Shown one piece after another: positions 33,680 through 39,153 of a stretch of 64,000 nucleotides of DNA. Position numbers and translations under genes: made by a program. Source of the DNA: a virus; the IMG/VR virus record IMGVR_UViG_3300010049_000014, positions 2,025-66,024 of that record; one strand, written 5' to 3'. Numbering within the stretch: position 1 is the first letter of the stretch; every line of letters begins with the position of its first letter. Under the pieces are notes generated by a model. It did no database searches. It was not told where the DNA came from and saw only the letters and a program-made list of their open reading frames with translations.

Positions 33680-34795
33680 CTAATCCCCCCAATATGCTAT
33701 TGCAATATGCGGAACCAGTAAATCAATCCACGCATCAGTATGACCGCTTTCTTTAAACCCATTTGTCATTACATAAACAGGTGTTAAAGTAGCGCTCCAA
33801 GGAGTATTTACTATTATGGTCGGCCCATGCAAACCATTTATACTCATTATATTTTCATTCTCGGCATTTAAACTGCCTCCGCGCATATTAAACATCCATG
33901 CAGCATTGTCTATCTGGCTTGATGTTATTGAAATCAAATGTTGTAGTGTACTCGCAACAATTAACGCTCCAGGGCCAGATGCCTTTATACCATTTGCAAT
34001 ATCTACCAACACAGCATCTGTCAGTGCATCTCTATCAATTGTAACGACACAATCGCCAAGATCAGCACCTACAGGTATCTCGTGCAATCTGACAACCTTA
34101 CGCTGTCCAAACTGTAGTTGTATGCCACCTAAAAGTTCCACTAACGCAGCAGTTCCTGTTAAATTTCCGCTTGTTATGATTTGACTTACAACCATGCTGG
34201 TATTGCCAAAAGTTGTGCTTGTGTTTTGTACATTACTTCCAGGCTTCAACGTACCATCATCGTTTACATGGACACCAAAAATAGAAACATTATTTATAAA
34301 AACACTAGAGTACCCGCCGTTGTTTGCCATATCCTGACTTTGCTTATCTATTTCTATATAAATACTTACACGGCCAATAAAACCATCTTGCGCAACAAAC
34401 GAGTAATCCTGCCACTGGCCATAAGGAACACTATCATATATCCTTTTCATCAGCGCACGAATAGCATTAACATTTAAAGATAATGTCACAGTAGCATTAC
34501 GCAACTGATCACCAACTTTTAAATCTGTAACAGCAAAACCTTGTCCACCGTCAATATTACGCACAAGTGCAGCCATATCTGCATCGGATATTGCAAGACC
34601 TGAAAAATGTCTTACATTGCGTATAATGGTTTCTAATCTTCCTTGATGCTTCCAATCACCTACGCTATAATTGATGCCTACGTACTTTGCCGCCTCACTA
34701 AAAAAAGTTTCTTTGTATGAGGCAGAAGAAATGTCTACGGCGACGTTTTGTCCGATGATGGCACCTACCGCCCTAAAAAACGATCTTACATTCAT
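33680..34795 (-). CDS. Hypothetical, probably virion-associated protein
   Basis: 371-aa ORF with AGGAG SD. Beta-rich C-terminus. Confidence 0.7.
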   Translation of the reverse strand: MNVRSFFRAVGAIIGQNVAVDISSASYKETFFSEAAKYVGINYSVGDWKHQGRLETIIRNVRHFSGLAISDADMAALVRNIDGGQGFAVTDLKVGDQLRNATVTLSLNVNAIRALMKRIYDSVPYGQWQDYSFVAQDGFIGRVSIYIEIDKQSQDMANNGGYSSVFINNVSIFGVHVNDDGTLKPGSNVQNTSTTFGNTSMVVSQIITSGNLTGTAALVELLGGIQLQFGQRKVVRLHEIPVGADLGDCVVTIDRDALTDAVLVDIANGIKASGPGALIVASTLQHLISITSSQIDNAAWMFNMRGGSLNAENENIMSINGLHGPTIIVNTPWSATLTPVYVMTNGFKESGHTDAWIDLLVPHIAIAYWGD

Positions 34796-34804
34796 TTTTA
34801 TCTC

Positions 34805-36373
34805 CTAGATAAAACGCCAACCGCCCTGGGTCAGTATCATATACTGTTTTGCGGTAGGATTATACCAATACTGGTTTAGTTGCGCGTTTCGATCTGATGT
34901 AGCAATAGTGGAGCCTGATGTTGGGTATCTTCCTGTGTCTGAAAACTGTAGCCCTGACGGTGCACTGCTCATACGTACTTCGCGTAACACAAGCCAACCT
35001 AGTAGCCCTGTGTATATTGTTTTGCGTTCTGTAAGCCCTTTCATGTCACCAATGCTGACATCACGCTTGTCATTTCTGAATCCATCCTGTTCAAGTAACG
35101 CAAGTAATGTTTGCGTACTTCCTTCATCTGCGATAGCTACATGACCAAAACTGTTGTTTGCTGTAGCGCCCCAAATAAGTTTTGCGCCTTCAGGCGGTAT
35201 AAGCCCTTCCTGATATTGTATACGAAAATACGCTGCGCTTAGTTTTGGTAAGTATTCATACCTTGTGTATAACTCATGTGCGCCACCTACACTTTCAAGG
35301 TCTGTAATGAAGTCTACGCTGGCACAATGATCACGAAAAACATCAACGCAATTATGTACGTAATAGTTATTAACTGTGTACGTATGATCGCCTGTAACGG
35401 ACAAATGATAGACAGTTTTAATACCTGCTGATTCCGTGTCTAATACATAATTACCTACAAAAGCATTTTTATTATTTCTTGCAAGTGTAAGTGTATATAA
35501 ATCTTTTTTCCTAGTACCATGCTTTCTTCCACCACTGCCATCAGGAAAAGTTGTAGGAGTTCCTGCAATTGACTTCAATCGCAGCGCAGCAGTTGAAAAC
35601 CCACAGCGTAATGCGGCTGCCTGTACTGCTAATAATAATCCTAGCGATGTATTACATATCACATCACTTTTATGTTTTGTACTGCCATCAGCGGCAATAA
35701 GACCCTCAATAATCAGTAAACATTCACGATTAGTATATTTTCCAACTAAAATTTTATTCCTTGCACTGTCGTAACATTGTCTTATAACCGACGCAAGGCG
35801 CTCATGCTTAGCTGCGTAAAGCCTAGATACACACGCATTTTCACATTCGTGGTGTTCCTTTGTTTTAAGTGATATGTTCAAACTATCTAAAAACATCACA
35901 TCCTTTCGCCTGTTATGCGTTACTATTATTTCATCATTGCGACAATCATGGTGTATACGCAAACTACCATCGCCTAACCAAAACCCAAGAAATAACAATT
36001 CGCTATCTGTTAAACCACTTTCCTCTGTAACCTTCTCTGTGAACACCTCCGGCTTTTCTCCAGTTTTTGTTGCTGTAGCAATAGGTTTAAATGCGCCAGA
36101 CTTCATAAGATACGGATGCTCTGGCGTAACAATAATGTCGCTAAGATGCGTTCTATAAAGCACACATTCAGCTTCTCTTTGTGTTTTTCCTATTACCGTA
36201 TTGTTTCCATAAAAGCCAACAACACTATCTCCTTCTTTTATATTTTCTATTGCCTTGTACGTACCATCAGCAAGAAGTACCATTGCGCCTGCTGGATGGC
36301 ACTGCCCGCCATATTTTTTATCATAATCTATAATAGTTCCTAATTTTCTATCCCGCCATTGCCTGTGTGTCAT
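34805..36373 (-). CDS. CHAP-domain endolysin interrupted by an intein
   Basis: Exteins join as DYDKKYGGQ|CVDVF, and later ANNSFGHVAI and LEQD (CHAP Cys/His motifs). Spliced length 205 aa. Confidence 0.9.
   Translation of the reverse strand: MTHRQWRDRKLGTIIDYDKKYGGQCHPAGAMVLLADGTYKAIENIKEGDSVVGFYGNNTVIGKTQREAECVLYRTHLSDIIVTPEHPYLMKSGAFKPIATATKTGEKPEVFTEKVTEESGLTDSELLFLGFWLGDGSLRIHHDCRNDEIIVTHNRRKDVMFLDSLNISLKTKEHHECENACVSRLYAAKHERLASVIRQCYDSARNKILVGKYTNRECLLIIEGLIAADGSTKHKSDVICNTSLGLLLAVQAAALRCGFSTAALRLKSIAGTPTTFPDGSGGRKHGTRKKDLYTLTLARNNKNAFVGNYVLDTESAGIKTVYHLSVTGDHTYTVNNYYVHNCVDVFRDHCASVDFITDLESVGGAHELYTRYEYLPKLSAAYFRIQYQEGLIPPEGAKLIWGATANNSFGHVAIADEGSTQTLLALLEQDGFRNDKRDVSIGDMKGLTERKTIYTGLLGWLVLREVRMSSAPSGLQFSDTGRYPTSGSTIATSDRNAQLNQYWYNPTAKQYMILTQGGWRFI
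35351..36301 (-). mobile_element. Intein (317 aa) with LAGLIDADG homing endonuclease
   Basis: Block A CHPAGAMVLLADG, block B VTPEHPY, LGFWLGDGS and EGLIAADGS, block F VYHLSV, block G VHN/C. Confidence 0.95.
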
Positions 36374-36786
36374 ACTTTCACTCCTTGAAATAATTTCTCA
36401 CCTAAGCCACCAATACCCTTATAAATAACATCATAAGCAATGGTAGCAAGAGCAACAATAAGCCCTAAGAAGAAATACATGGCAGTAACAACAGCAGGAA
36501 CTAGTGGACTTATAAATATAGTCGTTATTATACTAATAAGCAAGATGGTAATTTTCTTTTTTCGTTTATGTTTTTTATATTCTTTTGTGTGCGCTCTTAC
36601 AGGCGCTTCTTTAAGTAAAGGACATTCGCTTTTTTCTTCAGGAGTTTCGTGATATTTCTTAATATTACTGCCTTTCCCACAAATGAAGTTCGTCCAGCCC
36701 ACAACTACAATGGCACCCATTAGACATAAAAGCCATATTACGTTAGGGTCTGTCGCAAGTAACGCACCCATATCTGCTATGTTCAT
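36370..36786 (-). CDS. Holin candidate
   Basis: About three TM helices with a basic loop. Coupled (ATGA) to the endolysin. Confidence 0.6.
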   Translation of the reverse strand: MNIADMGALLATDPNVIWLLCLMGAIVVVGWTNFICGKGSNIKKYHETPEEKSECPLLKEAPVRAHTKEYKKHKRKKKITILLISIITTIFISPLVPAVVTAMYFFLGLIVALATIAYDVIYKGIGGLGEKLFQGVKV

Positions 36787-37334
36787 ATTAAATCAAAGCC
36801 TCCCCCTGCAATTGCTTTTTCTACCTGCGGTATCTTCCAATCCGGCACTGCAAGCGTAAGACTTTTATATATTACCGGGTACTCAATGCAAAAAGACACA
36901 CAATCGTTCTTCATTGTGTGATTAAAGCCTTCATGGACATATTTAAGACCCGCACACATACGCTCCTCATTATCTAGTGTGGGTGAATAAAACATCATTT
37001 TTAAATGGTCAACAAAAATGCCATCGACCTTTTTAACGATGGCATTGATAAGTTCTGTTTGTTCCATTAAGTCTTTTTTATTCTGTAATGCAATCTCTTT
37101 GTACTGCACCTTACTTTCATTTATTGATTCTTTAAGCTCATCAAATCTGCCCCAAAGTGTCTTAAAAGTCTGTGCTGTCTGTTCATCCATGCCTTCCATT
37201 GATAATTCAACCCCAGCAGCACCTGCCTTTAGTGTTTTTACTTTTCTCCCACGACGCAAAAATACGATGAGTGAAATTATAAGCGCGACAATCACCGCGG
37301 CATCTAGTATGATTTTTATGTATTCGTGCATCAT
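36783..37334 (-). CDS. Single-TM coiled-coil protein (holin/antiholin-like)
   Basis: N-terminal TM then a helical domain. Lies within the lysis cassette. Confidence 0.55.
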   Translation of the reverse strand: MMHEYIKIILDAAVIVALIISLIVFLRRGRKVKTLKAGAAGVELSMEGMDEQTAQTFKTLWGRFDELKESINESKVQYKEIALQNKKDLMEQTELINAIVKKVDGIFVDHLKMMFYSPTLDNEERMCAGLKYVHEGFNHTMKNDCVSFCIEYPVIYKSLTLAVPDWKIPQVEKAIAGGGFDLI

Positions 37335-37339
37335 TCCTC

Positions 37340-37822
37340 CTAAACTTTTGGATATACCGCATTAGGTGGTCTTAGTATACCACGCAATTGCGCTATTCTG
37401 TCAACTCCACCTAATTCATCTGCCCACTTTTCCCACCATTGTGTGATGTAGTAATGATAAATATTGTCGTACCGACAATCAATTTTACCTTCCTGTATGA
37501 GCTTTCGATGTTTAAGGTTGCCCCTCGCTGAAGGGATACCGATTACAAACAAATAGAGCGGCCCCAATATTTGCGACTGTTTATAATGCCCATATTCATG
37601 TTTTATAGTTATGAGGTCTTCTCTCTTTAATAACGTGAACATTGCCAGAGAAACCCCGGAAATAAACTTTTTAAACTTTGTATCTTCACTAAACCAATAC
37701 CAAGTATAATTACCGCACAATGTCTTTCTCTTTTTCGCTCCGAGAACAAGCACCATAAAAGCACCTGCAAGTACTTGAGGAAATTGCCAAAGCAGAAGAA
37801 AAAATCCTGGTATTTGTTCCAT
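37340..37822 (-). CDS. Membrane zincin-like (HExxH) protein
   Basis: IKHEYGHYKQSQILGPLYLFVIG...WWEKWADELGG with hydrophobic segments. Likely start MEQIPG. Confidence 0.7.
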   Translation of the reverse strand: MEQIPGFFLLLWQFPQVLAGAFMVLVLGAKKRKTLCGNYTWYWFSEDTKFKKFISGVSLAMFTLLKREDLITIKHEYGHYKQSQILGPLYLFVIGIPSARGNLKHRKLIQEGKIDCRYDNIYHYYITQWWEKWADELGGVDRIAQLRGILRPPNAVYPKV

Positions 37823-37827
37823 GCTAT

Positions 37828-39153
37828 TTACCCTGATACGTCTAGCTGAAAACACGGTACGTATGCAGCGTGTAGTTGCGGCTCATAAACGTCTACACGT
37901 CCTGCACCCGTAAAGACAATCCAACCAGCACCTGATAAACTGTTGGAACCAGACCACCAATTTATAGTACTTCCATTACCGCCGCTGCGCTTTTGTGCTC
38001 TACGCACAATAGAGTTTTGGTATGCTGGGAATTGAAGCTCTATTGTGTTTGCATTGCCAGAAGCATCTGGTAGCTTTGGTGCAGACCACACATACCTGCC
38101 ACTTACCTCATACTCCGTCGGTAGCCATAGAGCATCAAATACTGTTGCGGTTCCACTAGGCATTAAAATACTTCTGGCTGTTTCAAAAAGAAAATCTGTT
38201 TCCCCTGCGTTACTTGGCGCAAATGGCCTTCCAGGATTTGCCAACATAGTCCTAAGTTGACTGTTAAGCCATGCTCTTGCCGCACAATCTCGCCATCCCC
38301 CAACGGTTGTGTTAGTTGTATTTATGGCACCTAAACCCACAGAATTTCTAAACTGAAATAAAAGACAATCTTGGGAGCTTGGGTCGAACACGGTCGCACC
38401 ATTATATACGTTCATTCCCACGATGTCTACATAGCAATTGTCTAGGTACGCCGTATCGTACCCTCCTGCTGCGCCTGGTGGTACTATACTTGTTGGTTGT
38501 AAACTTAGTAGAAAATAGTCACCGATCCGTATACCATCAAATCTATTTGCCCTTGGCCTTGCACGTAATGTGCGCAGCACATCTGCTGGCGTATTACCTA
38601 AGCCCAGTTCCATCAAATTGCGCCCTGCTGGAGGATGCACATCTGCATTACTCAACATTGCCTCCGGCCCTCGGATATTCCCGCGACCAGCAACACTAAT
38701 GCCTGCGCCATCCGAACTTGGTATCGTATTTATCATTTTTATATCGCCAAGAAAAAGATTGATTCCTGGGCTATCGTGATCTCCAACCCGTGTAACATTA
38801 GGTGACGCGACAAGCAACAAATCCCCTACACGCGCACCTGTAGGCAATGTTTCCCTGCCAATAACATTAGTTGTAATGCTGAATATCTGCGTACCCACAG
38901 GGCCAATACCACCACGCAAAGTCCCTTCCACACGTACTGTGAAAGGCTCCATAACTATAATTGCACATAACGCACCGGGGTCTACTGCATTTAAGTTTCC
39001 TATACGAATGGTTTCCCCGGATACATTTAATATAAAATCACCTAACACAGCATCCACAGGAGGCGCTGTTACATCTTCTGTTACAGAGTGAATCCACCTG
39101 CCACGTGAGCCTGGAGGCCCGATTACATTTCCTAAATCCAATCTTGCGGCCAT
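37828..39153 (-). CDS. Tail fibre-like protein: collagen-linker repeats plus DUF6273/C-type-lectin-like C-terminus
   Basis: GPPG/GTLRGGIGP/GNIRGP linkers, GGWRDCAARAWLN, NWWSGS...YVPCF. Confidence 0.7.
   Translation of the reverse strand: MAARLDLGNVIGPPGSRGRWIHSVTEDVTAPPVDAVLGDFILNVSGETIRIGNLNAVDPGALCAIIVMEPFTVRVEGTLRGGIGPVGTQIFSITTNVIGRETLPTGARVGDLLLVASPNVTRVGDHDSPGINLFLGDIKMINTIPSSDGAGISVAGRGNIRGPEAMLSNADVHPPAGRNLMELGLGNTPADVLRTLRARPRANRFDGIRIGDYFLLSLQPTSIVPPGAAGGYDTAYLDNCYVDIVGMNVYNGATVFDPSSQDCLLFQFRNSVGLGAINTTNTTVGGWRDCAARAWLNSQLRTMLANPGRPFAPSNAGETDFLFETARSILMPSGTATVFDALWLPTEYEVSGRYVWSAPKLPDASGNANTIELQFPAYQNSIVRRAQKRSGGNGSTINWWSGSNSLSGAGWIVFTGAGRVDVYEPQLHAAYVPCFQLDVSG

Follow-up and report, generated by a model that had tools for sequence, protein, structure and literature searches.

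In the inteins PI-SceI (from yeast VMA1), TliVMA, PhoVMA and PI-PfuI, a double-motif LAGLIDADG endonuclease is nested within a HINT fold, class 1 splicing residues are present and position +1 is occupied by a Cys. All these features recur in the element described here. Yet, the hosts of PI-SceI and of the archaeal inteins are ATPases or replication enzymes, whereas the present host is a phage CHAP peptidoglycan hydrolase. Actinobacteriophage inteins, surveyed in 2016 and in a more recent preprint (10.1101/2025.01.02.630785), are likewise mobile and sporadic in phage genes, and the words lysin, endolysin, CHAP, amidase and hydrolase appear nowhere in the 2025 survey (10.1101/2025.01.02.630785). 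None of 224 mycobacteriophage Lysin A genes was interrupted by an intron or intein (Payne and Hatfull, PMC3314691). Full-text literature searches retrieved no description of an intein in a lysin, endolysin, CHAP or peptidoglycan hydrolase gene, in line with an earlier note on this DNA, according to which no characterised intein is known in a CHAP endolysin. As for the enzyme, mutagenesis and the crystal structure of LysK assigned catalysis to Cys54, His117 and Glu134, and the binding of calcium through side chains to Asp45, Asp47 and Asp56 (PMC4126393).

The window, i.e. the whole stretch of 64,000 nucleotides analysed here, belongs to a 69.5-kb IMG/VR virus record with an estimated completeness of about 80%, in which a single intein was found. 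The precursor ORF (34805..36373, minus strand, as for all features of the window given below; 522 aa and 58.1 kDa, stop codon included in the coordinates) is composed of an N-extein, an intein and a C-extein. The N-extein (24 aa, 36302..36373) ends with IDYDKKYGGQ, part of the LysK-type loop preceding the catalytic Cys, and the C-extein (181 aa, 34808..35350) encompasses most of the CHAP domain plus a C-terminal module of ~60 aa. Between them, the class 1 intein with its nested LAGLIDADG endonuclease (317 aa, 34.9 kDa, 35351..36301) occupies precursor residues 25-341; it starts with CHPAGAMV, ends with NNYYVHN and is followed by CVDVFRDHC. Its Cys1 corresponds to Cys25 of the precursor, the insertion being in frame between Gln24 and Cys342. 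Block A (CHPAGAMVLLADG, 36263..36301) contains Cys1, block B (IIVTPEHPY, 36110..36136) contains Thr59 and His62 of the intein, and blocks F and G (TVYHLSVTGDHTYTV and NNYYVHN, 35351..35416) carry the penultimate His316 and the terminal Asn317. All class 1 splicing residues were present (Cys1, TxxH and VHN/C, where the slash marks the junction), as were two LAGLIDADG motifs with an acidic residue in each: motif 1 (ELLFLGFWLGDGS, 35963..36001), where LGFWLGDG includes catalytic Asp111, and motif 2 (CLLIIEGLIAADGS, 35681..35722), where LIAADG includes catalytic Asp205.

In an alignment of 34 such inserts, Cys1, block B His62 (TPEH) and Asn317 were invariant, and Asp111, Asp205 and His316 nearly so. 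Blocks A, B, F and G and the two LAGLIDADG motifs, previously noted as intact, all matched conserved columns of this alignment. Taken as a single sequence, the intein matched the Pfam models Vint, Hom_end_hint, LAGLIDADG_3 and Intein_splicing with scores below their curated cut-offs. Since phmmer with the intein alone found no match in the PDB, a family profile was used for this comparison, and it matched the solved inteins gp41-1 (E 4e-12) and PI-SceI (E 3e-9), as well as the DnaB, DnaX and PRP8 inteins. An AF2 model of the precursor built from 45 sequences reached a mean pLDDT of 86 and a pTM of 0.71 (an earlier model from 6 sequences only, with a pLDDT of 49, was unusable). Its best Foldseek matches were PI-SceI (E 1e-13), TliVMA (TM 0.53), PhoVMA, PI-PfuI and I-DmoI. 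The LAGLIDADG fold was recognised through I-DmoI (TM about 0.6 by target) and through the endonuclease domains of PI-SceI and PI-PfuI; this fold evidence covers the intein part of the model, the list being filled by intein matches in which the CHAP part is not represented. Judged from profile and Foldseek matches, the resemblance to inteins is far beyond chance. Sequence and model together identify the insert as a canonical class 1 intein with a double-motif LAGLIDADG homing endonuclease, for which both splicing and cleavage are predicted. The full-length LAGLIDADG intein announced in the earlier note was therefore borne out by conserved columns, profile matches and the Foldseek comparison of the model.

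In silico excision of the intein yielded a product of 205 aa that was colinear across the junction with an intein-less metagenomic protein of 194 aa, P0004 (42% identity, E 1e-55). The junction DYDKKYGGQ/CVDV of the spliced product paired with DFDGVYGAQCADV in P0004, and the longer stretch IDYDKKYGGQ/CVDV with VDFDGVYGAQCADV. The boundaries proposed beforehand, i.e. a 317-aa intein at 35351-36301 splitting DYDKKYGGQ/CVDV, were thus exact.

A profile of 16 intein-less homologues matched CHAP endolysin structures (E 1e-12 to 3e-10), namely 8h1i and 8xyf (both E 1e-12), LysK (4csh, E 2e-10) and LysGH15 (4olk). The Pfam CHAP model (PF05257) was matched by 15 of these 16 homologues, P0004 scoring 26.9 bits. 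The precursor alone scored 13.8 bits for a cut-off of 26, because its CHAP domain is split by the intein, and a search of the six-frame translated genome with the same model gave no match. Among 45 aligned sequences, the only invariant columns were those of Cys342 (codon at 35348..35350) and His411 (within FGHVAIAD, 35126-35149). Asp344 and Gln429 were nearly invariant, the latter being flanked by Glu428 and Asp430 in the window protein (LEQDG, 35081-35098). The QC pair of the family aligned onto Gln53-Cys54 of LysK, making Cys342 the equivalent of Cys54, and the catalytic residues of the window protein aligned to C54, H117 and E134. Likewise, D16 and D18 of the N-extein and D344 of the C-extein corresponded to the three Asp calcium ligands. 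The host protein is, by these alignments, a small LysK-type CHAP peptidoglycan hydrolase with predicted activity.

The claim that the intein lies directly before the CHAP nucleophile agrees with the alignment of Cys342 onto LysK Cys54. Because this residue also occupies position +1, one and the same Cys should act both as splicing nucleophile and as catalytic thiol, and the proposal that a single thiol serves splicing and peptidoglycan hydrolysis is therefore supported by the LysK alignment. The loop bearing the first two Asp ligands is parted by the intein from the third one and from the catalytic Cys; since Cys342 and D344 are cut off from D16 and D18 in this way, it is plausible that the precursor is inactive until spliced.

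The C-terminal module of the host protein (34808-35000, precursor residues about 460-522, ...SDRNAQLNQYWYNPTAKQYMILTQGGWRFI) was common only to the window protein, P0004, P0014 and P0020. It displayed no family match, was missing from the CHAP proteins of ~135 aa found in Treponema prophages, and may be a wall-binding module.

On the minus strand, genes succeed one another in the order terminase, 429-aa ORF, 441-aa ORF, 171-aa membrane protein, 183-aa protein, 138-aa protein, lysin, two unknown ORFs, portal and protease. Directly upstream of the lysin, the 138-aa protein (36370..36786) displays two or three hydrophobic segments and is a holin-like candidate; it is preceded by the 183-aa protein (36783..37334), which has an N-terminal transmembrane segment. 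The lysin start is provided with an AAGGAG Shine-Dalgarno sequence and its ATG overlaps the upstream stop codon as ATGA. The lysin itself displays neither a signal peptide nor a hydrophobic segment. Small membrane-protein genes were found directly upstream of the lysin here and in contigs L002, L004 and L007. Those of L002 showed no similarity to the window's, and only L007 was syntenic: its lysin has no intein, and the gene at the position of the 183-aa protein (L007:702-1280) encodes a product 60% identical to it. This membrane-anchored protein, for which no known family was matched, appears as a conserved and so far undescribed partner of this lysin type.

Among about 25 neighbouring ORFs, only terminase, portal, protease and primase were recognised by PHROG and Pfam. 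The 171-aa ORF (37340-37855), which lies two genes upstream of the pair of membrane proteins before the lysin, displayed an HEYGH (HExxH) motif and a single membrane segment at its N-terminus. Neither Pfam nor PHROG gave a match for it, and its product may be a small membrane protein resembling metalloproteases. Short contigs of a termite-gut metatranscriptome matched 34640-34891 and 36383-36569 at 100%, the former covering the lysin gene at its 3' end and the latter lying in the membrane-protein gene upstream of it, but DNA carry-over is possible and these matches are not proof of transcription. Finally, a sister phage whose lysin carries an intein encodes, downstream of that lysin, a 139-aa protein (L004:1995-2414, L133:4602-5024) in which a long coiled coil accompanies a signal-like N-terminus and a membrane anchor at the C-terminus. 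Together with the 72-aa membrane protein that precedes it, it looks like a spanin-type or other envelope-disruption pair.

The window DNA was present in termite-gut metagenomes from several studies. Relatives of the CHAP gene in species-representative genomes came mostly from Treponema or Treponemataceae assemblies (25 of 33), and of the three genome alleles that carried an intein, two were likewise in Treponema. The host of this uncultured termite-gut phage is thus probably a Treponema-like spirochaete. A small CHAP lysin subfamily with the YGAQCVDLFRQY motif was also concentrated in Treponema assemblies (L092-L124), which originated from rumen, horse, goat, oral and termite samples; its members are apparently prophage lysins.

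When 1.8 billion cluster representatives were searched exhaustively with phmmer, 792 matches were obtained, about 45 of which spanned both junctions, i.e. about 45 protein clusters (at 50% identity) with an intein at the same CHAP site. This occupancy was nonetheless sporadic, as none of the best 80 IMG/VR relatives of the CHAP gene and none of the 33 genome relatives carried the intein. These empty alleles kept a strongly conserved site, YGAQ^CVDLFRQY (the caret marking the insertion point). An intein-based scan of IMG/VR recovered only two further occupied CHAP genes. As to known phages, 50,697 phage records contained no megablast match to the region, and tblastn of the C-extein against phage records retrieved one distant Arthrobacter phage endolysin only.

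In the extein tree, the window protein belonged to a clade with three intein-less proteins (96% support), itself nested in a clade with two more of them (95% support), and at least 7-9 changes of intein presence were required over the whole tree. AU tests rejected both a single clade of intein-bearing exteins (p 6e-5) and a clade uniting the window extein with those carrying the closest inteins (p 2e-4), with p-values somewhat weakened by the fact that these groups were chosen after a first look at the tree. The intein also differed in composition (GC 38.5% and GC3 26.5%, versus 43.5% and 34.5% for the exteins), its lower GC3 being read as foreign.

The search for intein-less alleles with the same exteins, suggested in the earlier note, uncovered exact-indel pairs in three sister lineages, with none for the window's own phage. 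Within three protein clusters of 90% identity, occupied and empty forms coexisted (761/465, 953/652 and 438/131 aa), and conceptual splicing of the long form reproduced the natural short protein at 452/465, 638/652 and 131/131 residues, respectively. For the 438/131-aa pair, DNA flanks were 92-97% identical and the sole large difference was an exact indel of 921 bp corresponding to the intein. The nearest intein-less extein of the window's phage was about 45-50% identical, a near-identical empty allele not being found. Contigs from four termite-gut runs bridged both junctions with the intein present; absence of the empty allele among them is a weak result, since these contigs are assembled and rare variants are dropped. 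Sister-lineage polymorphism and distribution indicate that the homing cycle is active or was so recently. Because no near-identical empty allele was found in the window's lineage, recent homing there is inferred from these sister lineages.

Some variation was observed among inteins occupying the same CHAP site. Those of P0034, P0042, P0043 and P0055 started with Ala instead of Cys and lacked a Cys in block F; they are possibly class 2-like (KlbA-type), unless their boundary has been shifted by the alignment. Those of P0051 and P0053 started with Ser. Relatives of the intein were also seen immediately in front of the catalytic Cys in other enzymes with a Cys nucleophile (P0075, P0079, P0080, P0110 and P0096). 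Reading the exteins from motifs only, the GGFP/C...HN/CQ junction resembles motif IV of C5-cytosine methyltransferases and the PP/C...HN/CH junction resembles thymidylate synthase. An endonuclease part was further detected in a viral contig of 225 kb, within an ORF resembling DNA methyltransferases (L091:3001-3378).

The reading that we favour, with a probability of roughly 85%, is that of a selfish homing class 1 intein placed in front of the catalytic Cys of a LysK-type CHAP hydrolase, likely the endolysin of a termite-gut phage. The anatomy, family, fold and insertion point of the element were shown by the analysis, as was the precise presence/absence polymorphism of sister lineages. A 58-kDa precursor would be made late in infection, coupled to the upstream holin-like membrane-protein genes. 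This intein copy, carrying all the required residues, would excise itself through an N-S acyl shift at Cys1, transesterification to Cys342, cyclisation of Asn317 and an S-N shift, releasing a 23-kDa CHAP enzyme and a free 35-kDa endonuclease. In the ligated enzyme, Cys342 would be the nucleophile beside His411, and splicing would probably be needed for lysin activity. The endonuclease is predicted to cut intein-less ...YGxQ^CVD... sites in co-infecting phages or resident prophages, into which the element would then be copied by homing. The intein would be a selfish passenger, as suggested by its rare and sporadic occurrence, its conserved endonuclease residues and the exact indels of sister lineages, and it would persist because the codons it occupies are those of the lysin gene that are best conserved and can least be deleted.

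Three other explanations were considered. One of them leaves the intein reading unchanged and makes the CHAP protein another cell-wall or peptide hydrolase, e.g. a virion-associated entry lysin. The gene indeed lies between terminase and portal genes, an unusual position for a lysis cassette; a putative spanin-like pair is located about 31 kb away; and PHROG and Pfam matched no holin family among the upstream membrane proteins. Against this, the gene directly follows small membrane-protein genes in four independent contigs and is translationally coupled to one of them here, its product is a small single-domain protein with homologues in prophage lysis-type cassettes, and PHROG matches of the lysin ORF were to endolysin and amidase families. 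The split CHAP gene was also the only peptidoglycan-hydrolase candidate found in the record, about 80% complete: no match was obtained with models of four other common lysin families (Amidase_2, Phage_lysozyme and SLT among them) or with the CHAP model, although the latter also misses the split lysin itself. Another type of hydrolase is accordingly unlikely, and translational coupling to the upstream membrane-protein genes leads us to read the CHAP gene, with moderate confidence, as a phage endolysin. A second idea is that of a splicing-dead intein and an effectively pseudogenised lysin gene, in favour of which could be cited the subthreshold Pfam scores of the single intein sequence. A dead intein would leave the record without its only hydrolase candidate, and it fits poorly with a frame open across 522 codons, with class 1 residues that all agree with invariant family columns and with the finding of the identical sequence in several termite-gut runs; it appears most improbable.

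The third alternative, put forward in the earlier note, views the intein as exapted into a conditional-splicing switch, sensitive to redox, metals or temperature, which would gate the endolysin as a lysis checkpoint or timer. The spirochaete-phage endolysin would then be a true zymogen, the thiol-based splicing of which lets redox or metal state decide the moment of lysis. Several observations are compatible with it: the precursor is probably inactive, its catalytic Cys being apart from the loop with two of the three Asp calcium ligands; both splicing nucleophile positions are Cys; and many lineages have an intein at this same site. Among other inteins, those of RadA, DnaB and RecA are documented to splice conditionally. 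Yet, close relatives do without the intein (the best 80 IMG/VR loci, all 33 genome loci and syntenic L007), near-identical phages with and without it coexist as exact presence/absence pairs, and its composition is foreign. Domesticated inteins tend to lose their endonuclease, whereas the endonuclease residues are conserved here. Moreover, the holin sets timing in a holin-endolysin cassette, and since the present lysin has no export signal and lies downstream of holin-like genes, timing is expected from the holin. The lysis timer thus found no support and both it and the zymogen are considered improbable. Less radical than the zymogen is the possibility that the endonuclease serves as a weapon, directed at the highly conserved lysin gene carried by competitor phages or by resident prophages.

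With the selfish homing intein retained as the best explanation, what is new about this textbook intein is the class of its host protein. It leaves the understanding of intein mechanism unchanged, with no new mechanism, but adds a lysis enzyme to a range of intein hosts made up of DNA metabolism proteins, ATPases and packaging enzymes. The same intein family was repeatedly placed before a catalytic Cys, i.e. in CHAP proteins and, judging from motifs, in a C5-methyltransferase and a thymidylate synthase. Splitting of the gene defeats the Pfam CHAP model, which explains why such lysins escape annotation. The occupied and empty pairs of near-identical phages amount to a natural experiment on the cost and effect of an intein in a lysis gene, and a naturally split, splicing-activated lysin could be a scaffold for conditionally active lysins.

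Compared with PI-SceI and the archaeal inteins, the window intein displays an identity of about 13-15%, and its 317 aa make it smaller than PI-SceI. On the host side, the window protein shares the xDxDGxYxxQC-D loop-Cys motif with LysK and LysGH15 (4csh and 4olk), 8h1i, 8xyf and 6ist, and, like LysK-type CHAP domains, it has a GH[VI] histidine and an EQ[ND] acidic residue. It differs from LysK in having just one small domain and a short C-terminal module, in lacking amidase and SH3b domains, in being interrupted by an intein, and in the likely host of its phage, a spirochaete instead of Staphylococcus. The nearest published parallel is provided by the group I introns of lysin genes in staphylococcal phages (K, G1, ISP and A5W), which are likewise selfish, self-splicing elements associated with a homing endonuclease. 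Those introns are removed from RNA and no interrupted precursor protein arises, whereas removal of the window intein would be post-translational and would make use of the enzyme's own catalytic Cys.
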